Shown here one piece after another: positions 1 to 26,275 of a DNA stretch of 61,084 bases (position 1 is its first letter; the number at the start of each line of letters is the position of its first letter). The position numbers and the translations under genes are program-made. The DNA is taken from the IMG/VR virus record IMGVR_UViG_3300032516_003835, positions 1 to 61,084 of that record, one strand, 5' to 3'. The notes under the pieces were generated by a model. That model made no database searches and was not told where the DNA came from. It saw only the letters and a list, made by a program, of their open reading frames with translations. Source of the DNA: a virus. Taxonomy: Duplodnaviria > Caudoviricetes.

Positions 1-141
1 CCCAACCCTCGGCGTCGTCAGCGCGCGGCCGGACGTCGAACGGCATGGCGGACATGACGGCCGGCCAGAGAGCGTCCGTGGCGGTTACCTCCCATCCGGG
101 CGGCCGGGGAGGAGCGCGAGGCCCCTCCCCGACTTAGCGGG
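1..141. repeat. Terminal direct repeat, left copy (circular-assembly overlap)
   Basis: 1-141 is identical to 60944-61084 except C127 vs G61070. Gene order runs on across the junction (capsid decoration gene, then FemAB-like gene). Confidence 0.95.
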
Positions 142-146
142 TTGTG

Positions 147-620
147 TTAAGTCGAGAACGTGGCTTCCGGCAGCTTGAAGGCATGGACCTGGATATCGCC
201 GAATCCGGCCGTCAGTGCGGCGCCGGTGGAGTTGCACAGAGACGAGCAGGAGACCGTCATCATGACGTCGAGGTAGTTCTCGCCGAGGGTCACCAGGCCG
301 GAGGACGTCGCGGCGATACCGAACCTGGCCATGTCGAACGGCCCGAAGAGCCAGTGGGACGCCCCCGAGGAACAGGTCTGGATCAGGAACGTCTCGCTGC
401 CGATACCCGAGCGCCAGAAATCGCCGGGCTGGACGGTCAGCCTCATGTAGCGAGCCTCGGCGACCTCGGAGGAGGCCACCCAACAAACCATGAACGCGAC
501 TCGGTCGTTGAGGTCGTACTCGAATGCGAAGCCGGAAGACGTGGTGAAGACGATGAAGCCCGTGGATTTGACATTGCTATCGCGCAGCATCTGCGCGACA
601 GAGACAGCCTGCACAGCCAT
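147..620 (-). CDS. Putative capsid decoration/cement protein
   Basis: Directly downstream of the major capsid gene; SD GAGGTGA precedes ATG 620; Ser/Thr-rich; GPF motif shared with 57532..57948. Confidence 0.55.
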   Translation of the reverse strand: MAVQAVSVAQMLRDSNVKSTGFIVFTTSSGFAFEYDLNDRVAFMVCWVASSEVAEARYMRLTVQPGDFWRSGIGSETFLIQTCSSGASHWLFGPFDMARFGIAATSSGLVTLGENYLDVMMTVSCSSLCNSTGAALTAGFGDIQVHAFKLPEATFST

Positions 621-660
621 GCGGATCACCTCATAAGGAGCGGAACTCTGGAGCGGGAGC

Positions 661-1518
661 CTAGATGTTAATCTCCGTGGTGTAGACCGCGGTCATGCTG
701 ACCAGCTGACGCGGATCCATGACCTTGGCCCCGTAGACCAGCAGGCCCCTGACAACGTCGGAGAAGTTGTCGTGGGAGCGGTAAGCCTCATTCTCCAAGA
801 CCTGCTGGGCGAACGTGAGGGCGGGTTTGCGGCCGAACAGACAGTAGCTCGTATAGTCCGGCGCGGTGCCCGTGGTCACGACGTTGTTGCTCATGTAGAA
901 ATCCATCCCCAGGGTAGGCATGCTGCCGATGTAGCCGGTCTTGATGATGTCGACGTTGTCGGTCTTCTTCAGGATGTTGGCCAGAGTCAGGCTGAGTGCG
1001 AACCAGGGCGGGACGACGCCCCAGCGACCCTCATTCGGGACGTTGTTCTCGTTCATCAACTGGGCGACGTAGCCGATCAGGCCGATCACGTTGCCTGAGT
1101 TGACGGCGGTCGAGCCGTGGGACGTGATGCTCGCTCCGGCCTGGGTGTAGAGGTTGGCGACGTAACTGTCGATGACATGCCCGAGCCCGAAGGCGGCTCG
1201 GTCGGCCGCTTGTTCGAGGAGGTTCGGCGTTGACTGGACCTTGTCCACGTCCTCAACCCCAAAGGCGTAGTAGTGGCCCTGGTCAACGGTCAAGACGGTC
1301 TGGACGGACTTCAGGTGCTCCACGGTGATCGTGGTCTTGCCCGGAGCATAGGGACTGATCGTGATGTCGCCGATCTGGTTAACGTGGACCGTGTTGCCCT
1401 GGGCCGTGATCTCGCCCTCGTAGTCCGTGTTACAGAGGGCCTTAAAGACCAGGGCATCATCGAGATGTTCCATGAGACGGGCATCCCAGAGTTCCGGTAC
1501 GAAGTTCTTGGTGGACAT
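661..1518 (-). CDS. Major capsid protein (P22 coat gp5-like family, HK97 fold)
   Basis: N-terminal NFVPELW..RL, NTDYEGEI..GNTVHV and C-terminal F.D.VRGLLVYGAKV motifs; follows the scaffold gene. Confidence 0.9.
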   Translation of the reverse strand: MSTKNFVPELWDARLMEHLDDALVFKALCNTDYEGEITAQGNTVHVNQIGDITISPYAPGKTTITVEHLKSVQTVLTVDQGHYYAFGVEDVDKVQSTPNLLEQAADRAAFGLGHVIDSYVANLYTQAGASITSHGSTAVNSGNVIGLIGYVAQLMNENNVPNEGRWGVVPPWFALSLTLANILKKTDNVDIIKTGYIGSMPTLGMDFYMSNNVVTTGTAPDYTSYCLFGRKPALTFAQQVLENEAYRSHDNFSDVVRGLLVYGAKVMDPRQLVSMTAVYTTEINI

Positions 1519-1590
1519 TGGGAATCACACCCCTTGGAATCGAGAAGGCCCCGAATATCGGGGCCGGGCGAAGCGGGGCTGGCGGGTAGG

Positions 1591-2307
1591 CTAAGTCTTG
1601 CCGGCGAGGATGCCGTCGAGGTTGCCGGCTTTGTACTCCTTGTTGATCTGGTCCCTGGGCATCTTCTTGAGGGCCTCGCGGGTGATCGCCGTGCCCGTGT
1701 CCTTCGTGGGCGGCGGCGGTTTGGTTCCATCGGTCTTGAACCGGGCGTCCACGGCCTTGCCCAGGGCGCCCGCGAAGGCCTCCTCGAGGCGGCGCAGGTT
1801 GGCGTCCGTTGTCTCCTCGTCATGGCCGATCAGGTGATCGACGAGAGTCGACAATTCCGCCGGCAACGCCTTCTGCCCGATGTAGCCAAGGGCGCGGGTT
1901 TTGAGGGCCTCGCGGGCCCGGGCCGCTTTCTCGTTCACGAGTTCCTGCTCGATGGCCTCAATCCGCCTCTCGGGCTCGCTCTTGGGCGGGTTCAGCTTGA
2001 CGACTTCGGCCTGGACGAGGCCCGGCAAGGTCTTCTGCCGGTAGGTCTCCACGGCGTCGGTTACGCGCTTATCGGTCAGAGACTGGGCGAGCTTCTTGCC
2101 CTCGTCCGCGCTCTCCAGCCACCCTCTGACTCCGTCGGGCGTCATGAGTGCGGCTACGAGGGTCTGGGTTTCGGGCTTGTCCCTGCCGTCGGCGAGGAAC
2201 TTCTTGACCCCGTCAGCGGTTACCGGAACCAGGCTCGCGAGATGGGCCTGGACCTCCGGGTCGGCCTGGTGCTGTTCAAGCAACGCCTTAACCTCGGCTA
2301 GCGACAT
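1591..2307 (-). CDS. Capsid scaffolding protein (DUF4355-like)
   Basis: Charged helical protein with DKRVTDAVETY and a C-terminal ITREALKKMP motif, directly upstream of the capsid gene. Confidence 0.8.
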   Translation of the reverse strand: MSLAEVKALLEQHQADPEVQAHLASLVPVTADGVKKFLADGRDKPETQTLVAALMTPDGVRGWLESADEGKKLAQSLTDKRVTDAVETYRQKTLPGLVQAEVVKLNPPKSEPERRIEAIEQELVNEKAARAREALKTRALGYIGQKALPAELSTLVDHLIGHDEETTDANLRRLEEAFAGALGKAVDARFKTDGTKPPPPTKDTGTAITREALKKMPRDQINKEYKAGNLDGILAGKT

Positions 2308-2357
2308 GCGAGGCACTCTCCTCTGCCCTCCCCGGTGCGAGCCCGGGAAGTGCGTGG

Positions 2358-3650
2358 TTAGCGGATGCGGAACGAGCCGTCGAGGACCGGGACCCGGAGG
2401 GCCTCCGTTTCCCTACCCTCGAACTCTTTCAAGATAGCGAAAACTTTCCGGTAGACATAGAGGAGGAACTCGACCTCGTCGTCCCCATGAGCGTACTGCA
2501 TCGAGTGCTGCCCGAGGCAGAGGACGCCGCGGGCGAAAACCTCCTGGAGATAGAGCGTCTTCTGGGCCTGGTCACGGAACCGCAGGAACGACCAGGCGGG
2601 ATGCCCGGTGCAAGAAAGGTCGAGTTCGAGGCGCCCCGCGATCTCATTTGCGCCGACCAGGAGTTTGCGGCCGAACTCGGCGAGACGGTCCGGGACTTTC
2701 TCCCTCCGCAGCTTCAGCAGGGTGGCCTCCGCAGCCGCCAGGGAGAGGGTCTCGCCCGAGTAGGTGAACGAGCAGTGAACCCGCTCCATGAGGCTCATCA
2801 CGTCGTGCCGGCCGACAAGGGCGCTCAGCGGGTAGCCGTTGGCCAGGCCCTTGCCGAACGTCGCCAGGTCGGGCTCGACGCCGAAATGCTCCTGAGCCCC
2901 GCCCAACCCGAACCGGAAGCCGGTGATGACCTCGTCGAAGATCAGCAGGGCCCCGTTCTCGTGGCAGAGATCCCGGACACCCTCCAGGAAACCGGCCTCG
3001 GGATAAGCATGGTTCATCGGCTCCATAATGACGCAGGCTACCTGAGCCGGCCGGGCTTCGAAGATGCGCTCCAGGCTGGGCAGGTCGTTGTAGCGGAAGG
3101 CGTGCGTCAGATCCCTGACGGCCTGGGGAACTCCCAGGTTCCGGCCGCTGACTCCGACGGACCAATCCTGCCACCCATGGTACCCACAGGTAGCGACATG
3201 GTCTCTCCCCGTGTAGGCGCGGGCCAGGCGGATGGCCATGGAGGTGGCGTCAGAGCCATTTTTGCCGAAGCGGACGGACGCGGCGCAGGGAATCATCTCG
3301 ATCAGGAGCTCGGCGACCCGGATTTCCACCGGATGGGGCAGGCCGAAGAGGACTCCCGCCTTGCGCTGGGCATCGACCGCGGCCTCTACGTCCGGATCCC
3401 GGTAGCCGAGGAGGACGGCGGTCAGGACCGAGCCGAAGTCCAGGAACTCGTTCCCGTCAACGTCCCAGACCCGACAACCCTCGCCGCGCTCCAGGTACAG
3501 AGGGGAGACGCCGGGCGGGTAGGTAGTCCGCGACTTCGAGAATGTCCCCGTCCCGCCGGGGATGACGTCGAGGGCGCGGGCGAGCAGGGCCTCGGAGCGG
3601 GCGAAGCGGGTGTCTGCGCCAAGAAGCGCCTTCACGCCAGTGGCGAGCAT
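2358..3650 (-). CDS. Class III PLP-dependent aminotransferase (GSA-aminomutase-like, sugar-cluster type)
   Basis: G.RVWDVDGNEFLD, RFGKNGSDA, GYHGWQDW, LIFDEVITGFR, PDLATFGKGLANGYP (PLP lysine). Confidence 0.9.
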   Translation of the reverse strand: MLATGVKALLGADTRFARSEALLARALDVIPGGTGTFSKSRTTYPPGVSPLYLERGEGCRVWDVDGNEFLDFGSVLTAVLLGYRDPDVEAAVDAQRKAGVLFGLPHPVEIRVAELLIEMIPCAASVRFGKNGSDATSMAIRLARAYTGRDHVATCGYHGWQDWSVGVSGRNLGVPQAVRDLTHAFRYNDLPSLERIFEARPAQVACVIMEPMNHAYPEAGFLEGVRDLCHENGALLIFDEVITGFRFGLGGAQEHFGVEPDLATFGKGLANGYPLSALVGRHDVMSLMERVHCSFTYSGETLSLAAAEATLLKLRREKVPDRLAEFGRKLLVGANEIAGRLELDLSCTGHPAWSFLRFRDQAQKTLYLQEVFARGVLCLGQHSMQYAHGDDEVEFLLYVYRKVFAILKEFEGRETEALRVPVLDGSFRIR

Positions 3651-3847
3651 GCGGGAACCTCCTTCGTTTCGTGGAGGACGCAACCGAAGCTAGGATGGAC
3701 CCAACCGAAAGGCCACCATCCGCCCCCGGGCGGGTTCTTGGCGCACCATTTGAAGCCGACCTTGATGAGCAACTCAGTGAAAAAGGAAGGGGCCTCCGGG
3801 GACTCGACGTCACCCCAGAACTTGCAGACCTTGCACCTACCGTCCAC
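3632..3847 (-). CDS. Small Cys-containing hypothetical protein
   Basis: GTG start overlapping the upstream gene; CKVCKFW..C..FGCVLHE pattern. Confidence 0.55.
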   Translation of the reverse strand: MDGRCKVCKFWGDVESPEAPSFFTELLIKVGFKWCAKNPPGGGWWPFGWVHPSFGCVLHETKEVPACSPLA

Positions 3848-4535
3848 GCTGCGCCTCCCACTCCAGGATGTCCTCCATCCCGAACTCAGGCTTCGCCGGG
3901 TAGAGCGCCTCGAAGATGGCCCTGACCCGCTCGTAGTCCTCGGTCGTATCCACCGACCACTTGCGGGCCGAGAGGTCGGGCCCATGGCCGCAGTAGGTGA
4001 TCTCGTAGCGCTCCGGCTGCCGGCGCATGTAGCGAGTAACGTGCTCTCGGTCCTGCGGCCCGAATGTCCAGGTGTTGGCCTCGGCCAAAGCGGAACCCGT
4101 GAATGCCTCGACGTCGAAACCGTCCGGGTAGCCCGCCCCGGCCTGACCCGTATTGACGGTCAGGTCCGCCCCGAAGCGCAGATGATCCCCGATTACCAGG
4201 TCGATGACCTCCGGGTCAGACAGCGGGCAGTCGCCGGTGAGACGAACGATAGTGTCGGCCTTCCCGCTACCGTGGATGCGATGGGCCTCGCTAAACCGCC
4301 GGAGCACGTCGTCTCGCGGCCCCAGGCAGTAGGCCACCCCGAGCCGCTCGCAGAGGTCGGCAATGGCCTGGTCCTCGGGTTCCCCGGTCGTCGCGACGAC
4401 AAGCTTGTCGATAAGTTTGCTGCGGCGGACCCGCTCGATCTGCCGGGCCAGCATCGGTTCACCCAGGAGTGGGAGAAGGGCCTTGCCGGGCAGGCGGGTC
4501 GAGGCCATGCGGGCCTGGATGATGGCGAGGATCAT
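3837..4535 (-). CDS. spsF: Acylneuraminate-type cytidylyltransferase (SpsF/PseF/NeuA family)
   Basis: IIQARMASTRLPGK.L, DVL.RF, IVRLTGDCPL, REHVT.Y and SVDT.ED motifs. Confidence 0.9.
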   Translation of the reverse strand: MILAIIQARMASTRLPGKALLPLLGEPMLARQIERVRRSKLIDKLVVATTGEPEDQAIADLCERLGVAYCLGPRDDVLRRFSEAHRIHGSGKADTIVRLTGDCPLSDPEVIDLVIGDHLRFGADLTVNTGQAGAGYPDGFDVEAFTGSALAEANTWTFGPQDREHVTRYMRRQPERYEITYCGHGPDLSARKWSVDTTEDYERVRAIFEALYPAKPEFGMEDILEWEAQRGR

Positions 4536-4747
4536 CCGCAGACCCTCCCTGCGACCCACTCCCAGAGTTCGGCGAGGGCCGCCCCGCCCAGGAGGCAGCA
4601 CAGTGCGAGGGCGAGAAAGCCCGCCACTCCCGCCAGGCACCACGCCGCAAAGAGTAGGAAATGCCCGCTCTCCAATCCCAGCGCGAGAATGAGGAGGAGC
4701 AGGCCGAGGGCGAACCACCGAGTCAGCGTGGTGTCCGGCGAGGGCAT
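4532..4747 (-). CDS. Small membrane protein
   Basis: Two hydrophobic segments; start and stop overlap both neighbours. Confidence 0.55.
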   Translation of the reverse strand: MPSPDTTLTRWFALGLLLLILALGLESGHFLLFAAWCLAGVAGFLALALCCLLGGAALAELWEWVAGRVCG

Positions 4748-5541
4748 CACGCGAGCCACCTCCTGGGATCGAGCAAGACCTCGTCCACCGTCGGAAGGTC
4801 CGGCTCCCAATCCAGAGGCTCGACCGCGAGGACCTCCGCGAGCTGCGCGGCTGAGTTGACACCGACTACGGCGAGGTCGATGAAGTCGAGGCCCAGGACG
4901 TAGCCCAGTGCCCCCTGAAGTGGGGTCAGCCCCCGCCTGGCGCAGGCCCGGCGGAAGGCGCCCAGGGGCGCGGCCAAGCCCGCCAGGTGCGCGGGTAGTT
5001 CGGCGGGCGCCATGAGCAAGGATCCCTGCAGGAACACGCTCCGGGCCTGGATCTCGATTCCCCTGCCATGGATCTCGCGGAGGAGGTCGACGAGGCGGCG
5101 GTCAAGCATGCTTACCGGGGCCTGGATGACGTCGGGCTGGGGTAGGAGATCCATCGCCCGGCGGACGTCGGCCTCGGTGTAGCAGCTGACGCCGATCTTG
5201 TCTGCCCAACCGGCGGCGCGGAACCGGACCAATTCCGGCCAGGCGTCGAGGTTCTCTGGGTCGTGGAGCAGGATCGCATGGAGACTCCGGGTCCGGAGCT
5301 CCGTAAGGGTGTGGTAGGCGTCTCGGCCATCGGCGGTCTTTGTCGTGAGCCGGAACAGGCCGGGCGACATGTAGCGGCCGAGGAGACGTTGGCAGCCGTA
5401 GGCCGGGGCCGTGTCAATGTGGGCGATCCGGCCCTCGGCGGCGGCGATGATGGCGGCGACCTCGGACTCGGCCGGCCGGCCGTCGTTCGCGACGCCGTAT
5501 TCGGCGACGAAAGAAGCGGTGCCAAGGGACAGTGAAACCAT
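4747..5541 (-). CDS. Aldo/keto reductase
   Basis: LSLGTA.F...YG, IDTAPAYG, TTK, LLH, KIGVS.Y, EIQARSVFLQG, VVGVNS..QL; SD AGGAGG before ATG 5541. Confidence 0.9.
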   Translation of the reverse strand: MVSLSLGTASFVAEYGVANDGRPAESEVAAIIAAAEGRIAHIDTAPAYGCQRLLGRYMSPGLFRLTTKTADGRDAYHTLTELRTRSLHAILLHDPENLDAWPELVRFRAAGWADKIGVSCYTEADVRRAMDLLPQPDVIQAPVSMLDRRLVDLLREIHGRGIEIQARSVFLQGSLLMAPAELPAHLAGLAAPLGAFRRACARRGLTPLQGALGYVLGLDFIDLAVVGVNSAAQLAEVLAVEPLDWEPDLPTVDEVLLDPRRWLA

Positions 5542-5555
5542 GGGGCAACCTCCTA

Positions 5556-5759
5556 TCAGGCAGGACGGGGCGCGGTCATGCAACTCGTGTAGGTTCTGGG
5601 CGGCATCCGAACCTCAATGGCCCGGACGTAGTCCTCAAAGGTCATGCCCAGCAGGTCGAGGGCCTCGGCGAGTCTCGGATTCTCCTCGAAGTAGCCTTCG
5701 GCAATCTCCCGAGCGGTCGGGAACTCACCTGGGACGGTATTACAAAGAGGGACGATGAC
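5556..5759 (-). CDS. Small hypothetical protein (start uncertain)
   Basis: 3' half of ORF 5556..5936 looks protein-like; strong SD GAGGGAGG at 5767-5774 is followed by GTC/ATC, not a canonical start. Confidence 0.4.
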   Translation of the reverse strand, partial: VIVPLCNTVPGEFPTAREIAEGYFEENPRLAEALDLLGMTFEDYVRAIEVRMPPRTYTSCMTAPRPA

Positions 5760-5938
5760 CCTGGAGCCTCCCTCGTGAAAAAAGACCGCTTCCTGGACAG
5801 GACCTGACTGCGGGGGCCCGGAATCTGGGGTGACGGAGAGCGCCGGGTCCCCCCTATCGTCCCGATCCGCCCAACAATGAAGCACCCCCGGAGATAACGG
5901 CTCCGAGGGTGCGGATGGAGGGGAGGGAGAACCCACCC

Positions 5939-6046
5939 ATGCTAGCCTACGTTCTATGGGGCCTGCTTCTGGCCCTAGCTGTGAAAATCCTTCTATCCCT
6001 GAAGGACATCGACATCCATGGCCGCGTCAAGCTTCGACTGAAGTAG
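5939..6046 (+). CDS. 35-aa hydrophobic peptide, type I toxin-like
   Basis: SD GGAGGGGAGGGAG, ATG 5939, MLAYVLWGLLLALAVKILLSLKDIDIHGRVKLRLK*, TAG 6044-6046. One TM helix plus a basic tail, flanked by a 14-bp long-range inverted repeat. Confidence 0.6.
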   Translation: MLAYVLWGLLLALAVKILLSLKDIDIHGRVKLRLK

Positions 6047-6088
6047 CGTGACCGGGCCCGGCGCTCTCCGGGTCGTCCACGCATGGCC

Positions 6089-6481
6089 TCAATCTCTTCC
6101 CGCCCCAACTGCCTGCGGCGCGGGCAAGGGAGGTCGTGTCATCGGGTCTCCCAGTGCCTCATAGGTCTGCTCGAAGATGTCGGGTTCGCAGAAGTCGCGC
6201 TTGCCGTTGGCGTTCCTAATGATGTAAGCGCCGACGTTGACCCGACGCCATCCGTTATCGGCAGTCTCAATGATTAGTGCTTCCACGGGACGGGGAGTCT
6301 CGCGTAAACCGCCGCTCCGAATGGCGGCGACCAATCCTCCCATGGTGTCATCCCAAGGCTCCCGCGGAGCACTCCGCACTAACATGCCGTCAAGCGCGGC
6401 GGCTAGATAGACGGCGTTTTCTTCGGTCAACCGGATGGCCTCGACCTCAGTGGGACGCCTGCGGATCCGTAGCCAATTCAC
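6089..6481 (-). CDS. Conserved phage hypothetical protein
   Basis: RPTEVEAI...G.YII.....G....C.PDIFEQTYE pattern common in phages; GTGA overlap with the neuB stop. Confidence 0.65.
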   Translation of the reverse strand: MNWLRIRRRPTEVEAIRLTEENAVYLAAALDGMLVRSAPREPWDDTMGGLVAAIRSGGLRETPRPVEALIIETADNGWRRVNVGAYIIRNANGKRDFCEPDIFEQTYEALGDPMTRPPLPAPQAVGAGRD

Positions 6482-7383
6482 TTCGGACACGGTCTCAATC
6501 TCCTTCCTCCCCAATCCGCGCGCCGGGCGATGACTCGCCAGTCGCGCTCGTTCTCCTCTACGCGCTTGACCCCGTCGCCGAGGGCGAGTTCCAGTTGGCG
6601 AACCTCATCCACCATGACCTGAAAGTCGGCGGACTCCAGGGCGAAGTGATGGTCAGGACCGGGACGCTCGGGGTTGTCTGTGAAGTGCTTTTCGATGACC
6701 TTCGCGCCCAAGGCTACCGCGCCGAGAACGTCGAGAGAGCCGGGCGCGTGGCTGCTGAAACCGAGGACGGCCTTGGGAAGCGCCTCCGCGTAGGTCTGAA
6801 GCACCTTCAGGTTCAGGTGACGGTAGGCGTCGGGGCTGCCGTCGTAGTTGAGGTTGCACTGCATGAGAACATGCGGGACTCCCTCATCGGCCAGGATGCC
6901 CGCCACGCACTGGACCTCGTGCGCGGTGGCGGCCCCGGTCGAGACGATGAGGGGCTTCCCCTTCCGGGCGAGGTAGCCCAGGAAGCCGAGCTCGACAAGG
7001 TCGCCGGAACCGACCTTGTAGGCGTGGACGTAGGGTTCCAGGGCGTCCGCCGCCGCTTCGTCGTAGGGCGTCGAGAGGAAATCGACTCCGGCCTGTTTGC
7101 AGACTCCGGACAGTGTCGGAATCCAGTCGAGCGGCGTCTCGGCCTTCTCGTAGACCTCGTAAAGCTCAGGCCGGCCGATAGAGGCGAACCCTTCCCGGCT
7201 GGCCAGGGTTTCGGCCTTGAAGTGCTGGAACTTGACGGCGTTCGCGCCGGCGATGGCCGCCAAGCGAATGAGATCCGAGGCGCGGTTAAGGACACCGTTG
7301 TGATTCGCTCCGATGTCGGCGATGAAGTAGACGGGGTAGCCGGGGCCGACACGGTGAAGCCGGGAGAGTTGAACCTCGGTCAC
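6478..7383 (-). CDS. neuB: Nonulosonic acid synthase (NeuB/PseI/SpsE family), no C-terminal SAF domain
   Basis: YFIADIGANHNG, GANAVKFQ, FLSTPYD, YKVGSGD, KPLIVSTG, GAKVIEKHFT, GPDHHFALE; GTG 7383 overlaps the pseB stop. Confidence 0.9.
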   Translation of the reverse strand: MTEVQLSRLHRVGPGYPVYFIADIGANHNGVLNRASDLIRLAAIAGANAVKFQHFKAETLASREGFASIGRPELYEVYEKAETPLDWIPTLSGVCKQAGVDFLSTPYDEAAADALEPYVHAYKVGSGDLVELGFLGYLARKGKPLIVSTGAATAHEVQCVAGILADEGVPHVLMQCNLNYDGSPDAYRHLNLKVLQTYAEALPKAVLGFSSHAPGSLDVLGAVALGAKVIEKHFTDNPERPGPDHHFALESADFQVMVDEVRQLELALGDGVKRVEENERDWRVIARRADWGGRRLRPCPK

Positions 7384-8366
7384 GAAACCATCCTCCTTAC
7401 CTCTTCGGCTGTCATGAGGTTCTCGGGCGAGTCGCTTGTGTAGCGCCAGCCGGGGGGCCGGATCTCCGGACGATCGGCGGTCGCCTTGGGCCCGTATCCC
7501 ACGACATGCCACGGGAACTGCGGCTCGATGACGTAGCGGGAGCCCCGGTCTGTCGTCCGCCGGGCCTCCTCCTCCGAGATCAGGCACTCGTGGAGCTTCT
7601 CGCCGGGCCGAATGCCGGTAACCCTGACCCAGGCCGCCGGCGCCACGACCCGGGCCAGGTCGGCGACAAAGCAGGACCGGAGTTTGGGGACGAATATCTC
7701 ACCGCCCTCGCCACTGAAGAGGGCCCCCAGAACAGCCGCGGCGGCGTCCGCCGGCGTCAACCAGAACCGGGTCATGCCCTCCGCCGTGAGGGTGACCTGC
7801 CCATCCGCGGCGGCCTGCCTCCGCCAGAGTTCCACGACCGATCCACGGCTCCCGAAGACATTGCCATAGCGAATGACACTGAAGCGCGTCCGGCGGTCTC
7901 CCGCGTAGGCGTTCGCCCCGATGAAAAGACGCTCGGCGCAAGCCTTGGTCGTCCCGTAGAGGTTTGCCGGCTCGACGGCCTTGTCTGTGCTCACGGCCAC
8001 CACCCGGCGCACATCCCGCTCCAGGGCGGCCTCGATCACGTTCTCGGCTCCGAAAACATTCGTCCGAACGGCCTCGAAGGAGTCGTACTCACAGGCTTCG
8101 ATCCGCTTCATGGCCGCCGCGTGGATGACGTAGTCCACTCCCCGGAAGGCCATGAGGAGGCGGTCCTTGTCGCGGACGTCGCCCAGGAAGAAGCGTAGGC
8201 GGTCGTCATCCTCGAACTCGGCTCTCATCTGGGCTTGCTTGTACTCATCGCGCGAGAGGATGACGATCCGGGCCGGGCAGTCTTCGCGGGGCAGGAGCTC
8301 CCGGACGAGGGCGTGACCCAGGGTGCCGGTGCCGCCGGTAATGAGCAGGGTCTTGTCGGTGAGCAT
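7380..8366 (-). CDS. pseB: UDP-N-acetylglucosamine 4,6-dehydratase (PseB/FlaA1-like)
   Basis: LITGGTGTLG, SRDEYKQ, RFFLGDVRD, HAAAMK, STDKA..P.NLYG.TK, RYGNVFGSRGSV, MTRFW, GIRPGEKLHE. Confidence 0.92.
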   Translation of the reverse strand: MLTDKTLLITGGTGTLGHALVRELLPREDCPARIVILSRDEYKQAQMRAEFEDDDRLRFFLGDVRDKDRLLMAFRGVDYVIHAAAMKRIEACEYDSFEAVRTNVFGAENVIEAALERDVRRVVAVSTDKAVEPANLYGTTKACAERLFIGANAYAGDRRTRFSVIRYGNVFGSRGSVVELWRRQAAADGQVTLTAEGMTRFWLTPADAAAAVLGALFSGEGGEIFVPKLRSCFVADLARVVAPAAWVRVTGIRPGEKLHECLISEEEARRTTDRGSRYVIEPQFPWHVVGYGPKATADRPEIRPPGWRYTSDSPENLMTAEEVRRMVS

Positions 8367-8389
8367 GGGGGCCTCCCGGTGATGGGCTG

Positions 8390-8428
8390 AAAACGAAACG
8401 ACCCCGGGGCGCTAGGCCACCAGGGTCG
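8390..8428 (-). terminator. Intrinsic terminator
   Basis: Minus strand CGACCC..GGGTCG hairpin followed by TTTCGTTTT. Confidence 0.6.
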
Positions 8429-8447
8429 CTAAGGGTTGTTGCCGCCG

Positions 8448-8642
8448 CTACTCGCGGTCCTTACTCTTCAGGAACTCACCGATGTCGAGCCGCTTATGGT
8501 CGAGGACCAGGGACAGCATTGACCTGATCCGGAGCCGGAGACCGGGCGTGGCCTCCGGGTCCTGGTAGGCGTCCCGGATGACGTAGAGAAGGCGCCGGAC
8601 GAGCGAGATGTCAGAAAGGTCGAGCTTGACGACGTCAGGCGA
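8448..8642 (-). CDS. 64-aa helical hypothetical protein (moron-like; non-canonical or mutated start)
   Basis: Open frame PDVVKLDLSDISLVRRLLYVIRD...KSKDRE*; SD GGGGGTGA precedes TCG 8642; TATAAT upstream and terminator downstream. Confidence 0.45.
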   Translation of the reverse strand, partial: SPDVVKLDLSDISLVRRLLYVIRDAYQDPEATPGLRLRIRSMLSLVLDHKRLDIGEFLKSKDRE

Positions 8643-8663
8643 GGGAGGTCACCCCCGAGGGCA

Positions 8664-9290
8664 TTATACCCCCTCGGATAAGGAGAGTGGAATCTGTCGG
8701 GCTGCACGGCTTCGGGTTGCGTGAAGTCTGCGGTGACACGACTGGCAGAGTCTCATAAGGTTGCCGATGGCGTTGTTGGCCTTATTGTTGTCGATGTGAT
8801 GGACCACGCCAGGCTTCCCGCCGCAAACCTCGCAGATGTCCGGCCGCCCGCTTTCCTCCCAGACCACCTGATGAACACGCTTCGTCGGATGCGCTGGATG
8901 CCTTGAGGAATATCGGATGTAGCCAGCATCGTCGGCCGCCATGTAGCCATTGAACATGGCATTCGCCGGACCCGAGTAGTGCTTGCCCCGGCACTCATTG
9001 GAGCAGTAGACATGAGCCCGGCTACTGCGCTGGAATTCCCGCCCGCAGACCGGGCACCGGATGGTGCGCTGCTTCCGGCGGTAGTCGAACATGCATCGCC
9101 TAGAACAGAACCGGCGGAGGCTTCTGTCTGGCACGAAAGACGTCCCACAATTTCCGCAGGTCTTAGGTGTGAGGCGCGGGCCGGCCAGCGCGGCCCCGTA
9201 ACACTCCCGCGAACAGTAAACCTGCCTTCGTTTGCTTCTGTCGATGGCCTCGAATGGTTTGCCGCACCGCCCGCAATGGAGAATGGCCAT
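8664..9290 (-). CDS. HNH endonuclease with N-terminal zinc-finger repeats (freestanding homing type)
   Basis: Three CxxCG..F...(Y/F)CS..C repeats; C-terminal CEVCG..VHHIDNNKANN...NL..LCQSCH; SD GGAGGT before ATG 9290. Confidence 0.85.
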   Translation of the reverse strand: MAILHCGRCGKPFEAIDRSKRRQVYCSRECYGAALAGPRLTPKTCGNCGTSFVPDRSLRRFCSRRCMFDYRRKQRTIRCPVCGREFQRSSRAHVYCSNECRGKHYSGPANAMFNGYMAADDAGYIRYSSRHPAHPTKRVHQVVWEESGRPDICEVCGGKPGVVHHIDNNKANNAIGNLMRLCQSCHRRLHATRSRAARQIPLSLSEGV

Positions 9291-9323
9291 GGCCGCACCT
9301 CCGATAGTGTTTCCGAAGGGGTA

Positions 9324-9392
9324 GTGAGGAAGGGGGCTCGGATAACCCCCTTGTCGGGCTGCAGACCCTATCCTCACGAGAACATCATACCA
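9324..9392 (-). promoter_or_regulatory. Extended -10 promoter plus structured leader of the HNH gene
   Basis: TGGTATGAT at 9392-9384; three-way junction with stems GTGAGG/CCTCAC, GGGT/GCCC and AGGGGG/CCCCCT. Confidence 0.55.
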
Positions 9393-9395
9393 CTG

Positions 9396-10310
9396 CTAGC
9401 CCGAAACCCGGTTCGCCTTCCACTCCGCGTAGGTCATCCAAGGGATGACGCCTTCTCCCCTGGCCCGGCGGACCGTAGGTTCGTAGCCCGCGATCTTGCC
9501 ACGTAGCGCGCATCGGCAATTGCAGTCCTCTTCTGGCACCCCGAAACCGCCTGGGGCTTTGGCTTTCAACCCCCGGATTTCGAAGAACCCGTCCACCGGC
9601 ACCGTCTGGCCGTCGAGTTCCTGATGACTCAATCTGGTGCGTTCGTCCAAAGTTGCACTCCACGTTTTCATGGTCGGCACCCCGCGCCGCTCCGCCTGCT
9701 CCAGGGCCGCGAGTCTGCCCTCCTGCGTCACCCGATGGGCCTCGGTCTGCGCCACCCTGATCGCCTTGGCCGCGTCGCCGTCGAGAACCCCCTTGATCCG
9801 CCGGGCCATGTCGTCGTAACCCTCGCCCCGGATGAGGCCCTGGGTGATCTCGGATCGGATCCGGGTGACGACCTGGGCCCGGTTGGCCTGCAGACGCTCG
9901 GAGAGTTTCATGCCTGAGATCGGGTTCTGGACCGAGGCCGCGATCGTGGCCGGGTTCAGCAGCGTCCAGCCGAGCCGGGCCTGGGCCTGCCGCTCCAGGG
10001 CGTAGGCCGTCCGCCAGTAAGCCTCGGAGTAAGCGTTGCCGGAGCCGACCGTGACCGCCTTGCCGGCCTGGGCGTAGAGGCGGTTCATCTCGGCCCTAAC
10101 CGAGGCGGTCAGGCTTTCCAGGCGCCGGTACTTGGCGAGCTCGACATAACTCATCTTCCCGCCCACGGCGTAGCGGGCGGCGTAATCAGCGAGCGTGCCG
10201 CGCAGTTCGCGCAGCGTCCGGGCATAGGCGCGGAGGACCTCGCGTTGCGTGCCGGCGCTGAGGCGCTCGATGGCCCGCTCGCCCTGCAGGAGATCTCGCT
10301 CCAGACTCAC
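9396..10310 (-). CDS. Head morphogenesis/minor capsid protein (SPP1 gp7/Mu F-like)
   Basis: A.RVAQTEAHR, KTWSATLDERTRLSHQELDGQ, NCRC motifs. Confidence 0.9.
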   Translation of the reverse strand: MSLERDLLQGERAIERLSAGTQREVLRAYARTLRELRGTLADYAARYAVGGKMSYVELAKYRRLESLTASVRAEMNRLYAQAGKAVTVGSGNAYSEAYWRTAYALERQAQARLGWTLLNPATIAASVQNPISGMKLSERLQANRAQVVTRIRSEITQGLIRGEGYDDMARRIKGVLDGDAAKAIRVAQTEAHRVTQEGRLAALEQAERRGVPTMKTWSATLDERTRLSHQELDGQTVPVDGFFEIRGLKAKAPGGFGVPEEDCNCRCALRGKIAGYEPTVRRARGEGVIPWMTYAEWKANRVSG

Positions 10311-10322
10311 GGCGCAGACCTC

Positions 10323-10715
10323 CTACCGCTGGCGCTTCAGACAGACGAGGACCCGAGCGAGGTCGTCAATAACTTGCTCTTGGAGCGCTTCTTCGAACGA
10401 GTCTTTCGCGGTTTGCCAGGTATGCAGTTTCGCGTGGAGGAGTTCGTGGACGACGTCGGCCTCCATGTCCTGCACGAAAACCTCAGCGCCCGTGCCGCAC
10501 TCGTCCGGGCAGTCGAGCGGACTCCTGACCTCCAGGAGACCCGTTTTCTTCTCCCATGTGTAGACGAGTGAGGCCGAACTGTCCGGGGTCATGTTCCGGG
10601 CCCGGCCGATGCGGACCGCGAACTGCCAATCTCCCAGCCCCAGCCGGTCCTGCCACTCCCGGACACACTTGGCCAGACCATCCTCGTCGAACACGACCGC
10701 CTTCGGCTCACTCAC
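10323..10715 (-). CDS. Hypothetical protein with HEXXH motif
   Basis: WQDRLGL.DW and VVHELLH; lies between the portal and minor capsid genes. Confidence 0.65.
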   Translation of the reverse strand: MSEPKAVVFDEDGLAKCVREWQDRLGLGDWQFAVRIGRARNMTPDSSASLVYTWEKKTGLLEVRSPLDCPDECGTGAEVFVQDMEADVVHELLHAKLHTWQTAKDSFEEALQEQVIDDLARVLVCLKRQR

Positions 10716-12273
10716 CGGCCGCTCCGCTCTGATCCGGGCTACCCTGGGGAGGCTCGTCGCCATCGTCGGTTGGTTCCTCCTTCTCGCCCTCGCCCTCAGC
10801 CGGCACTCGATCCAGGTCCACCCTGCCCTCAGCCGCCATGTCGCGAAGCTCCTTCTCCGAGTCGGTCACGAAGGACAGGAGGTCGAGGCGCGTCTTCTCG
10901 GACACCAATCCCTTGAGCAGGCCCGTGGTCTGGGCCTCATCGTTGAGGTTCAGAGGGAAGTTTCGGGTAAACTGCATCGTGACCGCCTTGTAGTCGATCG
11001 CCTGGCCGCGCTTCCGCCAGACCGTGGCCAGGACCTCGAACATGCGCCGGCTGGCGGCCGAGTGCTTGCGCTCGGTGGTGGCGCAGGAACTCTCCAGGTT
11101 AAAAAGTTTGAACTTCAGGGCTATACCGCTTACGGTGCCCCCGAACGCCTCGTCGTCGAAATTGACCGACTTCGCGAAACGAAGAATATTCCTGTCGAGC
11201 CTGTCAAGGTGGTGCTCAATGATCGCGTCATCGAGGGATTTGGTGAGGAACCTGATCTCGTGGGGCTGACCGCCGGCGGCCGTCGGGATGATGAGAATGC
11301 CGGTCTTCCGGGCCCGCTCGATAACGTCGTCCCCTAGATCGACGCCATAGGCGGCCATGTAGGCGAGCCGAAACTGCTCGATCTCGGAATTCACGTCGGA
11401 GACGGCTCGGTCGTAGGCGTCAATCAAAGCGACGACCCTGGAGGCGTCGCCCTGGCGCTCATCATTGTTCGGGAACGCAATCAGCGGGCACAGGTCGAAC
11501 AGGTGCGGCCGGGGATTCGCGGGCGCCCCGCTGTCGAGTTCGTAGTCTCCGCCCGAGCCCTGGACGTAGTAGTAGGCGTGGCTCGGGGTGTACCACTCGG
11601 CCCGCCAAACGTCTACCCACTCGCCGCCCCGGAAGAGCGGGGCCTCATAGTAGCGGAGGGCGTGCTCGGCCTCCCAGGCGTTGCCCGTGGTGACCGGGAT
11701 AACCTCCCAGGGCGGGATGGCCATGCAGTAGGGTAGACCGTCAGCCTGCGCGTCCCCGCCTCGCACATAGAGCAGGCGGGCGCCGTAGCCGCAGATCGCC
11801 TCCATCTTGCCGGTCTCGGCGTCCAGGTCGGCCAGGTTGGATCGCAAGACGAAGTCCTGCAAGGTCTTGTTGTGGTCGGCGTAAGCCGGGTTCTCGTCGG
11901 CCGTGATCTCACGGGGTCTCTGTCCGAGGAGGCGACCCATAAGACCGGGCTGGGTCTCGGTGACGTAACCGGTCTTATCTAAACCGTAGCTGACGGGCCG
12001 ACCCATGAAGTACCCTAACTTGGTGTCGATGATCGCGCCAAAAAAATCGTTGGCTAATTGGGCGTTCACTTTCGTCGTCGAATACTCGAAGGTGCGGCCA
12101 TAGATCGGCACCCCGTCCCGAGTCGCGCAGTAGCGGCGGTAGAGGGCGGCCATGGCGTCCCGGCTAGCTTGGTGGGCGGCGATGAGCGATCCCACCACGG
12201 CCGCGGTGGGCTGACCGCCATTCCCGGCGAGTTCCGCCTGGGCTTGCAGGATGGCTCGGGACAGACTGTCCAT
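10708..12273 (-). CDS. Portal protein (SPP1 gp6-like)
   Basis: IIDTKLGYFMG.PV.Y, CP.I.F.NN.E..GD, LIDAYD...SD, SGIALKFKL, FTRNFP.N; follows terL. Confidence 0.92.
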   Translation of the reverse strand: MDSLSRAILQAQAELAGNGGQPTAAVVGSLIAAHQASRDAMAALYRRYCATRDGVPIYGRTFEYSTTKVNAQLANDFFGAIIDTKLGYFMGRPVSYGLDKTGYVTETQPGLMGRLLGQRPREITADENPAYADHNKTLQDFVLRSNLADLDAETGKMEAICGYGARLLYVRGGDAQADGLPYCMAIPPWEVIPVTTGNAWEAEHALRYYEAPLFRGGEWVDVWRAEWYTPSHAYYYVQGSGGDYELDSGAPANPRPHLFDLCPLIAFPNNDERQGDASRVVALIDAYDRAVSDVNSEIEQFRLAYMAAYGVDLGDDVIERARKTGILIIPTAAGGQPHEIRFLTKSLDDAIIEHHLDRLDRNILRFAKSVNFDDEAFGGTVSGIALKFKLFNLESSCATTERKHSAASRRMFEVLATVWRKRGQAIDYKAVTMQFTRNFPLNLNDEAQTTGLLKGLVSEKTRLDLLSFVTDSEKELRDMAAEGRVDLDRVPAEGEGEKEEPTDDGDEPPQGSPDQSGAAGE

Positions 12274-12285
12274 GCCGCACCTCGC

Positions 12286-13932
12286 CTAGTAGAGTGATCG
12301 CTTGCCCACTTCGACCTTCGGGAGTTCCGACCGGGTTAGGAGGCGCATCTGGTGGGCTATGCCCCAGGCGATGACCGAGTCGTCGAAGCAGCCGCCCTGG
12401 GAGCCCATGGAGCCATCCGCCTTGTGCTCGAAGGTCAACGCCTCGGAGACGAGGAGGCTGTTCGCTACGCGGAAACCCGGCGTCGAGATCAACTGGGCGA
12501 GGTAATCGACCAGGATGGGCTTCGTTTTGGCGCTCGTCAGCCAGCCCCAGCGGCGCTCAGACTGGCCGGTCAGGTGGTCGTAGTCCTGCCGGGCGTAGAG
12601 TTTCGGGTAACGCAGGACGTTGACCAGGGTATTAATTACCGAGTGGCCGTGGTTATTGTCCTCGACCCCGAGAGTGGCCGTGTTGTAGCGCCGACCCAGA
12701 GCGTCGAGTTTCGAGGCGAACACGTGATCGGGCCAGTGACCCCGAAGGCAAGCCACGTCGCTGCCGGTGGCGCGGTCGATGACCAAGCCGACGGACCAGT
12801 CGCCGTGAACCAGCCCCTCGGCCGTGTCCGCGCCGATCACGTAGTGGCCCTTGGGATCGGGCGGCTGCCAGATCAGTAGCTGACGCGAGTCCTCCGCCCC
12901 GGTCGGCTCGGCGCACCCGGCAAGCAGCCGCATGAGTGCCGCCTGATCGAACACCGGGCGGCCGCTGAGCAGGAAGCAACTGACGTCGTCCTCGGGATGC
13001 TCCTGCCAGAAGTCGCCCTTGAGGTCGAGGATTTTGGCTCTACGCCACTTCAGTTGTTCCGGGGCAAGACCGTGCTTTGACGCGAGTTCCCTCTCCTGGC
13101 GGCCCGTCTCGGACGACTCATCGAACTCCACGGTCTCCCCCGGATCGAGCGGCAGCCGGTGCTCCTCATGGGTCCACCACGGAAAAAAGTGCGGCTTCAA
13201 CCGCGAGGCCCCGCCCTTGGCCAGGCCATACTCACCGTGGAAGTAACCGCCGATACCCTTGGCGGTCGATTCCAGCCGGATACGCCCGCCAAGGGGCACG
13301 GCCTCGATAAGGCCCGTTGCCGTGGCCTCCGCGTCCCCCGGCCAGAAAGCGACTTCGGAGAGGTGGAGGTTGTTGATGGTCAAGGACCGGCCCGCGCCGG
13401 CCTCGCCCGCAGTGGCCACTCCGAACCAGGAGTCAATCCGGTCGAACTGGAGTTCGCGGCGGTTGTGGTACTGCGGCCGGGCCGGGTTCGCGCACAGGCG
13501 GCGCTTCTCGGCCTCAGGCAGGTTGTCGTAGAAGCGCCGCACGATCTTGAAGAGCGTTCTGGCGCTTTCGAGTTTATGAGCCACGACCATCGAGGTCGTG
13601 CCGGGGTGCCGGACGGTGTCCTCGAAAAACTCGGCCAGGATCAGGGTCGAGACCCCGCCTTGGCGATATTTGAGAATGAGGTCCCGGAGCGTCTTCGCGT
13701 CCCAGAACAATTCCTGGATCGCGTTGAAGCGCAGCGGGACGAGCCGTTTGAACTTATCCCGGATCCACAGGTTCTCCTCGATCCAAGAACGGGGCGACGG
13801 CGCTATAGCCTCCTCATCGAGATCGGCTAGCGCCCGGGCAATGCCGCGGTCAATCGCGGCGGGATCAATTCGGAGCCGAGTCGGGGGTGGCGCTGGCCTC
13901 GGCGAGTCGGGAACGGACAGTGGCAGCGACAT
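12286..13932 (-). CDS. terL: Terminase large subunit
   Basis: Walker A variant LILKYRQGGVST, Walker B LHLSEVAFW, coupling motif ESTA, nuclease YVIGADTAEG and DDSVIAW. Confidence 0.92.
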   Translation of the reverse strand: MSLPLSVPDSPRPAPPPTRLRIDPAAIDRGIARALADLDEEAIAPSPRSWIEENLWIRDKFKRLVPLRFNAIQELFWDAKTLRDLILKYRQGGVSTLILAEFFEDTVRHPGTTSMVVAHKLESARTLFKIVRRFYDNLPEAEKRRLCANPARPQYHNRRELQFDRIDSWFGVATAGEAGAGRSLTINNLHLSEVAFWPGDAEATATGLIEAVPLGGRIRLESTAKGIGGYFHGEYGLAKGGASRLKPHFFPWWTHEEHRLPLDPGETVEFDESSETGRQERELASKHGLAPEQLKWRRAKILDLKGDFWQEHPEDDVSCFLLSGRPVFDQAALMRLLAGCAEPTGAEDSRQLLIWQPPDPKGHYVIGADTAEGLVHGDWSVGLVIDRATGSDVACLRGHWPDHVFASKLDALGRRYNTATLGVEDNNHGHSVINTLVNVLRYPKLYARQDYDHLTGQSERRWGWLTSAKTKPILVDYLAQLISTPGFRVANSLLVSEALTFEHKADGSMGSQGGCFDDSVIAWGIAHQMRLLTRSELPKVEVGKRSLY

Positions 13933-25892: not shown

Positions 25893-26275
25893 CGGCGGGC
25901 CTCCGTCCGGGCCTGAATGTCCAGGACGACCTTCTGGAGTTCGCGGGCGGCCTTGGCCAGGCGGATGATGTCGCCGAGGTTCCGGCCGCCCCGCATGTAG
26001 AGGGTCGGGTCGAGGAACGGGGCGACGGCCTCCGCGTGATCGGCCTTCCGGATGAACGCCTCCAGGGGCATCTCGGCCACCAGGGTGCCGAGAAGCAGCA
26101 GCTGCTGTTGGGTCACTTCGTACTCGGCGGCGGAGAGGGGAACGATCAGGTCCTCGGGGCTCGGTGGCTCCGGACACGGAGTAACCGCCACGGGCAGGTC
26201 GGACGGTTTCGCCGTTGGGTGGCGCCTGCGGATCTCGGCGTCGAGTTTGGGGTCGAATGTGCGCTCATCAGCCAT
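25889..26275 (-). CDS. Hypothetical protein
   Basis: Operon chain; P.LDPTLY motif. Confidence 0.6.
   Translation of the reverse strand: MADERTFDPKLDAEIRRRHPTAKPSDLPVAVTPCPEPPSPEDLIVPLSAAEYEVTQQQLLLLGTLVAEMPLEAFIRKADHAEAVAPFLDPTLYMRGGRNLGDIIRLAKAARELQKVVLDIQARTEARR

Follow-up and report, generated by a model that had tools for sequence, protein, structure and literature searches.

Maf enzymes O-glycosylate flagellin with pseudaminic or legionaminic acid, and the sialyltransferase Cst-II employs a catalytic histidine. Protein glycosylation with nonulosonates by Maf and the glycosylation of virions are both already known; to our knowledge, virion glycosylation by phage-encoded enzymes is known only from a few actinobacteriophages, and with ordinary sugars. 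In mycobacteriophages, work attributed to Freeman et al. in 2023 reportedly found that phage-encoded glycosyltransferases glycosylate the phages' own capsid and tail proteins. Two further systems handle related acidic sugars. The available part of one report places genes for a GNAT, a class III aminotransferase ('glutamate-1-semialdehyde aminomutase'), an acylneuraminate cytidylyltransferase, an aldo/keto reductase, a CapD/PseB-like dehydratase and NeuB in the O-antigen locus of Legionella pneumophila serogroup 6/12 (PMC3694923), and that of another describes a sugar acid of the 3-deoxy-D-manno-oct-2-ulosonic acid (Kdo) type on phage cytosine, made with a phage cytidylyltransferase (bioRxiv 10.1101/2023.12.21.572611). 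Here we describe a set of putative nonulosonic acid genes in the head module of an uncultured tailed phage (Duplodnaviria; Caudoviricetes), IMG/VR record IMGVR_UViG_3300032516_003835, whose full length of 61,084 bases (CheckV completeness 89%) is called the window below. Next to its capsid gene the window encodes a protein that we name MafL. The most economical reading, which we consider probable, is that this phage system O-glycosylates head proteins with a self-made cytidine monophosphate (CMP)-nonulosonate through MafL, a virus-specific enzyme with a GT42/Maf fold.

Most subscription journals lay outside the coverage of our literature search, which returned no description of a phage head module with either a nonulosonate pathway or an enzyme like Maf or GT42. 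The proposed system stands out by the size of the MafL family, its viral specificity and its consistent linkage to head genes.

Sugar genes of the head module

All late genes of the window lie on the minus strand, in the order large terminase, portal, MuF, HNH endonuclease, first sugar block, scaffold, capsid, second block, and head-completion/connector genes. Genes were called from the list of open reading frames (ORFs), Pfam, NCBIfam, and inspection of start codons and ribosome-binding sites (RBS). The features are given below in late-gene order, with lengths in amino acids (aa) or nucleotides (nt), GC content at third codon positions as GC3, and summed serine and threonine content as S+T.

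12286-13932, minus strand: large terminase (late-gene order, Pfam)
10708-12273, minus strand: SPP1-type portal protein (late-gene order, Pfam)
9396-10310, minus strand: MuF-like minor capsid protein, upstream flank of the first sugar block
8664-9290, minus strand: HNH endonuclease between MuF and the sugar block; GC3 0.71
7380-8366, minus strand: PseB-like UDP-N-acetylglucosamine (UDP-GlcNAc) 4,6-dehydratase, 328 aa (PF02719, 295 bits; RBS GGGAGG)
6478-7383, minus strand: NeuB-family nonulosonate synthase, 301 aa (PF03102, 211.8 bits; GTG start at 7383)
6089-6490, minus strand: small phage ORF (phrog_419/1810/4502, function unassigned; GC3 0.66 against 0.81-0.87 in its neighbours)
4747-5541, minus strand: aldo/keto reductase, 264 aa (PF00248, 48.9 bits; RBS TAGGAGG)
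3837-4535, minus strand: SpsF/KdsB-like CTP_transf_3 cytidylyltransferase (CMP-sugar synthetase), 232 aa (PF02348, 97.8 bits)
2358-3650, minus strand: class III (HemL-like) pyridoxal phosphate aminotransferase, 430 aa (PF00202, 175 bits)
1591-2316, minus strand: capsid scaffolding protein (PF14265 DUF4355, 60 bits)
661-1518, minus strand: major capsid protein (PF25209, 30.9 bits; phrog_267 major head protein, 178 bits)
147-620, minus strand: Ser/Thr-rich 157-aa protein between the capsid gene and the transferase block; S+T 20.4%
60944-61084 (= 1-141), no strand: terminal direct repeat, 141 nt, 99% identity
60030-60998, minus strand: FemAB-family (double-GNAT) protein, 322 aa (PF13480 Acetyltransf_6, 32.6 bits against a cut-off of 22)
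58961-60019, minus strand: MafL, 352 aa, candidate nonulosonate transferase from its fold
58470-58970, minus strand: GNAT N-acetyltransferase, 166 aa (PF13302, 60 bits; PF00583, 53 bits)
57972-58463, minus strand: Ser/Thr-rich 163-aa protein after the GNAT gene; S+T 25.2%; no Pfam or PHROG family
57532-57948, minus strand: Ser/Thr-rich 138-aa protein upstream of the head-tail connector genes; S+T 23.2%; no family

All eight genes that a sequence-only reading of this DNA had assigned to a nonulosonate system are present, on the minus strand with the late genes and at or near the positions it gave them, and their enzyme identities hold at the level of families (Pfam, NCBIfam and solved relatives). 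The circular junction across which it had joined the two gene groups is real: a direct-repeat search found positions 1-141 again at 60944-61084 with 99% identity, so the genome closes on itself, the unit measuring about 60,943 bp, and its two blocks are contiguous. The coupling by overlaps that it had described is seen in three gene pairs (PseB/NeuB, 4 nt; NeuB/ORF 6089-6490, 13 nt; MafL/GNAT, 10 nt). The order and strand of the first block are likewise as described, but the block is less compact than had been implied, being broken by gaps of 547 nt (5541-6089), 211 nt (4535-4747) and 186 nt (3650-3837) and by a small unrelated phage ORF. This ORF (6089-6490), for which tblastn found no homologue among the related loci, probably lies outside the sugar pathway. 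GC3 is 0.78-0.87 in the sugar genes and 0.79-0.86 in the structural genes; the sugar genes equal the structural genes in this respect and are adapted to the phage.

The 547-nt gap contains a 12-bp GC-rich terminator-like hairpin on the coding (minus) strand at 5912-5882. The same gap holds a 35-aa hydrophobic mini-ORF on the plus strand (5939-6046; RBS GGAGG), antisense to the late operon; it could be a small membrane peptide, a moron or an element resembling a type I toxin. ORF 5556-5936 was not accepted as a gene, having no family, a low-complexity start, a GC3 below the filter and the hairpin inside it. At the upstream edge of the block, the HNH gene is separated from the PseB-like gene by 297 nt, and locus L013 carries an HNH gene at the equivalent place.

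Comparison with NCBIfam models and solved structures placed each enzyme in its family. The PseB-like protein scored 379.9 bits against TIGR03589 (PseB), just below the cut-off of 407.75, and its best solved relative is the Helicobacter pylori UDP-GlcNAc C6 dehydratase (2gn4, 279 bits). NeuB scored 223 bits against TIGR03569 (NeuB_NnaB) and 188.9 bits against TIGR03586 (PseI; cut-off 340.25), both below cut-off; its solved relatives are SpsE (1vli, 159 bits), PseI (8h2c, 132 bits) and NeuB (1xuu, 128 bits), and no SAF domain was found in it. The aldo/keto reductase reached 109 bits against the KidO-like model NF011432, again below cut-off. For the cytidylyltransferase the best solved relative is 6oew ('Cytidylyltransferase', 112 bits), followed by KdsB enzymes, and the PseF model TIGR03584 gave 38.7 bits against a cut-off of 205.7. 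The class III aminotransferase scored 361 bits against NF004856 (cut-off 486); glutamate-1-semialdehyde aminomutases (about 200 bits) and sugar C-6' aminotransferases (7lld, 150 bits) are its solved relatives, and homologues were found in the head/packaging modules of four other loci (L008, L068, L079 and L080). In the second block, the FemAB-like protein scored 192.4 bits against TIGR04421 (FemAB_IMCC1989; cut-off 250) and has a homologue at the equivalent position in L004. The third enzyme there had been called PseH-like: its membership of the GNAT family stands, but its likeness to PseH is weak (TIGR03585, 30.2 bits against a cut-off of 93.1). A GNAT gene also follows MafL in L008, L010, L027 and L031.

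MafL: family, neighbourhood and fold

A word-indexed search returned 539 relatives of MafL, all unnamed, and an exhaustive profile search of 1.84 billion cluster representatives returned 5,347 at E ≤ 0.001, 4,373 at E ≤ 1e-10 and 1,867 at E ≤ 1e-30. By a pattern scan, 405 IMG/VR contigs encode a MafL relative, whereas 185,579 prokaryote species, each represented by one genome, yielded 24 contigs in the same scan, all from metagenome-assembled genomes (MAGs), mostly short and from very different phyla; the family is therefore essentially viral. Its nearest ESM Atlas clusters consist to 85-100% of viral 'hypothetical proteins', and the nearest cluster bearing a Pfam family, which we treat as a lead only, has PF01973 in 13% of its members (score 0.83). 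A close relative with 71% identity (P0002) lies on a 19-kb contig. Among 50,697 GenBank phage records a single one, Microcystis phage Mvi-Yong1342-1 (PP496355.1; L190), contains a homologue; its gene (11905-12708) is annotated as 'type 11 methyltransferase', which is probably wrong for the matched part. Two MafL paralogues occur in some viral contigs, in tandem in L057 and with a divergent second copy about 6 kb upstream in L064 and L073.

Gene neighbourhoods were compared in 80 of the 405 IMG/VR contigs and in the 24 MAG loci. Eight loci were annotated with Pfam, and their capsid and sugar proteins, together with those of the window, were then searched against all loci by tblastn; seven loci necessarily match queries taken from themselves. 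The sequence-only reading had suggested looking for the same genes at the head-module position of other phages, and the outcome is strongly positive: 67 of the 80 viral loci have a capsid gene on the strand of MafL and no more than 3 kb away from it (upstream in 63, downstream only in 4). Where at least 3.9 kb of upstream sequence was available (44 loci), the capsid gene was found within 3 kb upstream in 38, comprising 27 capsids of the HK97 type, 9 of the P22-like/Phage_capsid_4 type and 2 of the E type. The HK97-type loci have Phage_portal and an S78 protease, the P22-like loci have the SPP1 portal, MuF and DUF4355 scaffold found in the window, and the E-type loci have a Mu portal. The same arrangement was seen in 10 of the 24 MAG loci, and no recognisable capsid gene was found within 3 kb in 6 viral and 4 MAG loci with enough upstream sequence.

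Sugar genes accompany MafL in many of these genomes. NeuB (PF03102) was found in 20 of the 45 longest of these 80 viral MafL records, including all four that are at least 90% complete, and CTP_transf_3 in all five MafL records tested; the triad of NeuB, cytidylyltransferase and MafL is present in 4/4 near-complete genomes. Relatives of the window NeuB occur in only 3 of the 50,697 GenBank phage records. In L017, L030 and L054 the order is TerL, NeuB, short-chain dehydrogenase/reductase (SDR), cytidylyltransferase, FkbM methyltransferase (and transketolase), portal, protease, capsid, X, MafL and connector, where X marks the position between capsid and MafL. L068 has TerL, PseB, cytidylyltransferase, class III aminotransferase, portal, MuF, scaffold, capsid, X and MafL, and L079 has class III aminotransferase, SDR, UDP-GlcNAc 2-epimerase and hexapeptide acetyltransferase and, further along, capsid, X and MafL. 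Judged from these gene orders, what appears constant is MafL beside the capsid together with some ulosonic acid pathway, the predicted chemistry of which differs by lineage.

Two viral contigs found through NeuB (L002 and L003) gave no MafL match, in records only 38% and 47% complete. L003 has a PseB-like gene (1623-2711) directly after the tape-measure gene, and RmlD-like, NeuB and GNAT genes (9189-11418) after the tail-tip genes, which places nonulosonate genes in a tail module.

The position between capsid and MafL is occupied throughout: wherever the capsid gene is 0.3-3 kb upstream of MafL (73 loci), one or more ORFs of at least 80 aa separate the two. The 92 such ORFs have a median S+T of 23.7% (interquartile range 21.2-26.3), compared with 13.5% in capsid proteins, 8.9% in MafL and 13.2% in 840 other same-strand ORFs (Mann-Whitney p 1e-30, which is not an independent-sample probability because the loci are related). 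An hhalign comparison between the family of the window's 147-620 protein (A2) and the intervening ORFs of HK97-type lineages (A3) found no relation (probability 0.4%), and these proteins appear to share composition and position rather than homology. The 147-620 protein is a candidate decoration protein and glycan acceptor. Its homologues keep the equivalent position in related loci, no Pfam or PHROG family was found for it, and its AlphaFold2 model is an all-beta sandwich of modest confidence (predicted local distance difference test, pLDDT, 66). A decoration-protein family name was tried for it and rejected, the fold search having given only generic beta-sandwich/carbohydrate-binding-module and jelly-roll rows at E ≥ 3e-3. 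The 57972-58463 protein, with a weak homologue after the capsid gene of L046, is a second candidate acceptor or a head accessory protein; the 57532-57948 protein has a homologue in L008.

MafL itself gave no Pfam or PHROG family match. Neither PF01973 nor Maf_flag10_N (PF20157) was listed for it at E ≤ 10, and PF06002 (CST-I) was matched at E 0.43 with 10.4 bits against a cut-off of 25; a MafL profile matched the Cst-II chains of the PDB at E 0.5-0.85. In an AlphaFold2 model built from 36 sequences (pLDDT 83.6), approximately residues 34-208 form a catalytic-like domain and residues 212-352 a long helical hairpin; these C-terminal ~140 residues draw coiled-coil matches. In a Foldseek search with MafL, the first 12 Cst-II/Cst-I rows held ranks 1-10, 12 and 14 (E from 1.3e-3, probability 1.00); ranks 13 and 17-20 were unrelated dehydrogenases, and a Pasteurella sialyltransferase, human ST6GALNAC2 and the kinase MptE stood lower. 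VIA, which is independent of Foldseek, aligned residues 34-208 with Cst-I (2p56_A) at Z 11.0 over 158 residues (root-mean-square deviation 3.3), with the flagellin glycosyltransferase Maf (5mu5_A) at Z 10.0, and with an MptE-like protein (8sd5_A) at Z 9.7. The modelled catalytic-like domain is thus predicted to have a GT42 sialyltransferase/Maf-like fold. Its best-conserved motif aligns with the CMP/nucleotide-binding region of Cst-II and with the equivalent motif (GVD) of bona fide Maf. The description 'Maf-like' given by the sequence-only reading therefore stands for the fold, but not for sequence families, since PF01973 is unmatched even at E ≤ 10.

In the homologue P0010 exactly this motif is interrupted by some 260 residues that resemble an intein, include a LAGLIDADG domain and end in His-Asn before Ser. 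Many MafL homologues have insertions of about 250-300 aa at the same conserved motif, and a break at the profile position of the P0010 insertion is seen in at least 13 of the best 150 representatives of the family; the longer homologues P0102, P0133, P0137, P0139, P0140, P0153, P0176, P0177, P0184, P0207, P0232, P0254 and P0258 and the loci L133, L139 and L128 were noted alongside P0010. The insertions point to an intein family specific to the viral MafL enzyme. Inteins usually occupy catalytic motifs, so the position of these insertions would be typical of a catalytic site.

Proposed mechanism and alternatives

We propose that the sugar genes, being co-oriented in the late head block, would be transcribed together with the late genes provided that neither the gaps nor the hairpin stops transcription. 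The PseB-like dehydratase would convert UDP-GlcNAc into a 4-keto-6-deoxy sugar, which the class III aminotransferase and the GNAT would aminate and acylate, and which the aldo/keto reductase and the FemAB-like enzyme would tailor further, with the host possibly supplying missing steps. NeuB would condense the hexose with phosphoenolpyruvate to a nonulosonic acid, the cytidylyltransferase would activate it to the CMP-sugar, and MafL would transfer it in the cytoplasm to Ser/Thr residues of head proteins, before or during assembly. The likeliest acceptors would be the adjoining small Ser/Thr-rich proteins, and possibly the capsid protein itself. This proposal rests on the enzyme families, the fold, a gene order conserved across phage lineages, and the occurrence of MafL together with NeuB and cytidylyltransferase; from these we infer each reaction, which sugar is made, which protein accepts it and when. 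A complex prediction for MafL with the 147-620 protein gave no answer (score 0.02) and is evidence neither way. The virion glycosylation put forward by the sequence-only reading thus keeps its footing in enzyme families, fold and head linkage, but not in a canonical Pse pathway.

Contigs from a sediment metatranscriptome match the capsid gene (364 nt with 5 differences, 147 nt with 0), the scaffold gene and the aminotransferase gene (216 nt, 4 differences), a weak hint that these genes are transcribed, with DNA carry-over possible; the contigs give no cover on PseB, NeuB, the aldo/keto reductase or most other parts, a gap that is uninformative on the expression of those genes. Three other sediment metagenome runs, dating from the same year and perhaps from one campaign, contain near-identical DNA.

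Several observations weigh against the proposed glycosylation of head proteins. The canonical PseB/C/H/G/I/F pathway invoked by the sequence-only reading is incomplete: in six-frame searches of the whole record, PseC was not found (PF01041, DegT/DnrJ/EryC1; control positive in 14/14 genomes), nor was PseG (TIGR03590; control positive in 7 genomes). The one aminotransferase present is the class III enzyme. No sugar enzyme attains its NCBIfam equivalog cut-off, so the product is to be called 'a nonulosonic acid' and is not demonstrably pseudaminic acid. The gaps of 547, 211 and 186 nt and the hairpin mean that transcription may not run through the block. At the sequence level the comparison of MafL with GT42 or Maf is not significant (E 0.4-0.8), hhalign gives it a probability of 2.3% against bona fide Maf, and its fold is also that of the kinase MptE. 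No sugar gene was seen in 6 of the 23 viral loci for which 9 kb or more of upstream sequence is available, and L190 carries its homologue immediately before the small terminase gene rather than behind the capsid gene. Phages that lack glycosylation also commonly have decoration proteins rich in Ser/Thr. Finally, the window phage is temperate, encoding an integrase, repressor-type helix-turn-helix (HTH) proteins and an IrrE-like protease, so that a role in the lysogen is conceivable for this genome.

Three readings would accommodate the incomplete pathway: the class III enzyme may replace PseC, with another protein or the host supplying the hydrolase; the pathway may tap host intermediates; or the product may be another nonulosonate, of the 5,7-diamino type or related to it. 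The family chemistry of the FemAB-like protein and of the GNAT suggests an N-acyl or aminoacyl decoration of the sugar.

Two features outside the head block bear on the alternatives:

43031-44221: tyrosine integrase
20843-21697: C-5 cytosine methylase, early region

We consider it unlikely that MafL modifies the host surface, placing sugar on a structure such as flagellin, pilin, S-layer or polysaccharide, whether in the lysogen or in the course of infection, for instance to keep other phages from superinfecting. Besides the temperate lifestyle, the gaps and the terminator-like hairpin would allow a moron-like independent expression, and Maf enzymes and a FemAB-like homologue are found in bacterial flagellin glycosylation islands. 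TIGR04421 relatives of the FemAB-like protein were present in 9 of 401 sampled Pseudomonadota genomes, and two of the bacterial loci were inspected. In L189 the relative directly adjoins a bona fide Maf (PF20157 and PF01973) in an island that also contains NeuB, a DegT aminotransferase, a hexapeptide acetyltransferase, a PIG-L deacetylase, methyltransferases, FliS, FliD, FlaG and three flagellin genes; in L188 it has no sugar context. Against a host-surface role, the genes lie inside the head block, and some 17 to 25 kb of the 60.9-kb circle separate them from the integrase; a search of positions 1-10500 found no sigma-70-like promoter. Across the family, MafL stands beside the capsid gene in 67/80 viral loci and three capsid lineages, and is nearly absent from cellular genomes, all 24 contigs there being MAG. 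The four near-complete MafL genomes comprise one with a tyrosine integrase, one with a large serine recombinase and two with neither, and the lack of a recognisable integrase in 2/4 argues against lysogenic conversion as a general role.

It is quite unlikely that the genes form an auxiliary or incomplete metabolism that boosts or diverts host nonulosonate or UDP-GlcNAc, with MafL a non-transferase head protein such as an assembly factor or an MptE-like kinase. The absence of PseC and PseG and the unmet equivalog cut-offs would fit such a metabolism, yet the sugar genes are fully phage-adapted in GC3, genes of the block are translationally coupled by overlaps, and NeuB, cytidylyltransferase and MafL occur together in all four near-complete genomes. 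The kinase MptE has the fold of MafL (Z 9.7) and some MafL phages lack nearby sugar genes, but the MafL motif is common to the CMP-binding region of Cst-II.

Hypermodification of DNA, with the activated acid sugar attached to modified phage bases as Kdo is to 5-hydroxymethylcytosine in some phages, is very improbable: the window does encode a C-5 cytosine methylase, and the available part of the Kdo report has such an acid placed on phage cytosine via a phage cytidylyltransferase, but the methylase lies about 12 kb away in the early region, the DNA glycosyltransferases described in that part are GT-A/GT-B enzymes beside base-modifying genes rather than GT42-like ones beside capsid (bioRxiv 10.1101/2023.12.21.572611), and no Tet/JBP-type dioxygenase match was found, a weak point since the control also gave no match.

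Glycosylation of head proteins by MafL therefore remains our preferred reading for the window. We rate as evenly balanced the broader proposition that, in many phage lineages and habitats, the virus-specific GT42/Maf-fold family (at least 4,373 representatives at E ≤ 1e-10) coats Ser/Thr-rich head decoration proteins with acidic sialic-acid-like sugars, drawing on phage-made CMP-ulosonic acids of varying chemistry. If true, this would amount to a general, unrecognised 'sialylation' of virions, equivalent in viruses to the glycosylation of flagellin: phages would make sialic-acid-like sugars themselves and use a dedicated family of thousands, outside Pfam and PHROGs, to fix them to their heads. 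Views of the phage surface would have to be revised as to its charge, its stability, how it sticks to mucus or sediment, and how immune systems and bacterial defences recognise it. A function would be assigned to a large 'hypothetical' viral family, which would also offer a new source of nonulosonate transferases with protein acceptors, and many 'auxiliary metabolic' sugar genes of viromes would be reread as structural-maturation genes.

The rest of the genome encodes DnaB, RusA and SbcCD-like proteins in addition to the repressor-type HTH proteins and the IrrE-like protease. The best relatives of the portal are those of Bacillus and Staphylococcus phages (41% identity), at odds with the window GC content of 66% (63-71%). 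A nucleotide search of 2358-8366 against GenBank phages gave one 191-nt match at chance level, and an Rfam scan of the window found no family. A 1,045-aa protein (23040-26177) has a ParB N-terminal domain and HTH only at residues ~200-340, the remainder being without a family. Four tandem 42-nt repeats at 48575-48742 (69-100% identity to the reference copy), corresponding to 14-aa repeats, fall within a 548-aa minus-strand ORF of the tail region (48054-49700) without a Pfam family. Among small ORFs of the early region, direct repeats were found at 31450-31530/32193-32273 (81 nt, 91% identity) and 30974-31015/31530-31571 (42 nt, 88% identity); both pairs may be duplicated small genes or regulatory sites.

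Comparison with known systems

The glycosylating mycobacteriophages of Freeman et al. are said to use ordinary GT-A/GT-B enzymes and host nucleotide sugars, and to have neither a nonulosonate pathway nor a GT42/Maf-like enzyme. The Legionella O-antigen locus and the phage block share the same unusual combination of enzymes. As presented in the available part of its report, however, the Legionella locus has PseG and a DegT aminotransferase, both absent from the phage, and serves a polysaccharide without a Maf-like transferase (PMC3694923). The phages with Kdo-glycosylated DNA likewise encode the activation of an ulosonic acid and its transfer to a phage macromolecule; in the available part of that account the target is DNA, and the transferases are GT-A/GT-B enzymes encoded with base-modifying genes rather than in a head module (bioRxiv 10.1101/2023.12.21.572611).

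At the level of fold, the best match to MafL is given by the GT42 enzymes Cst-I and Cst-II of Campylobacter jejuni, and the nucleotide-binding region of Cst-II aligns with the MafL motif. The Cst enzymes act on lipooligosaccharide glycans and not on proteins, and their sequence likeness to MafL is non-significant. The Maf systems for flagellin O-glycosylation in Campylobacter, Helicobacter, Aeromonas and Magnetospirillum likewise set a CMP-nonulosonate pathway beside a cytoplasmic transferase and the gene of a self-assembling structural protein. The catalytic domain of Maf (5mu5) resembles that of MafL in fold (Z 10.0), and the GVD motif is common to both, whereas MafL is about half the size, lacks matches to PF01973 and Maf_flag10_N, and belongs to a viral family. 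The neighbour of Maf is the flagellin gene and that of MafL is the capsid gene; by analogy, the proposed system would be the capsid counterpart of flagellin glycosylation.

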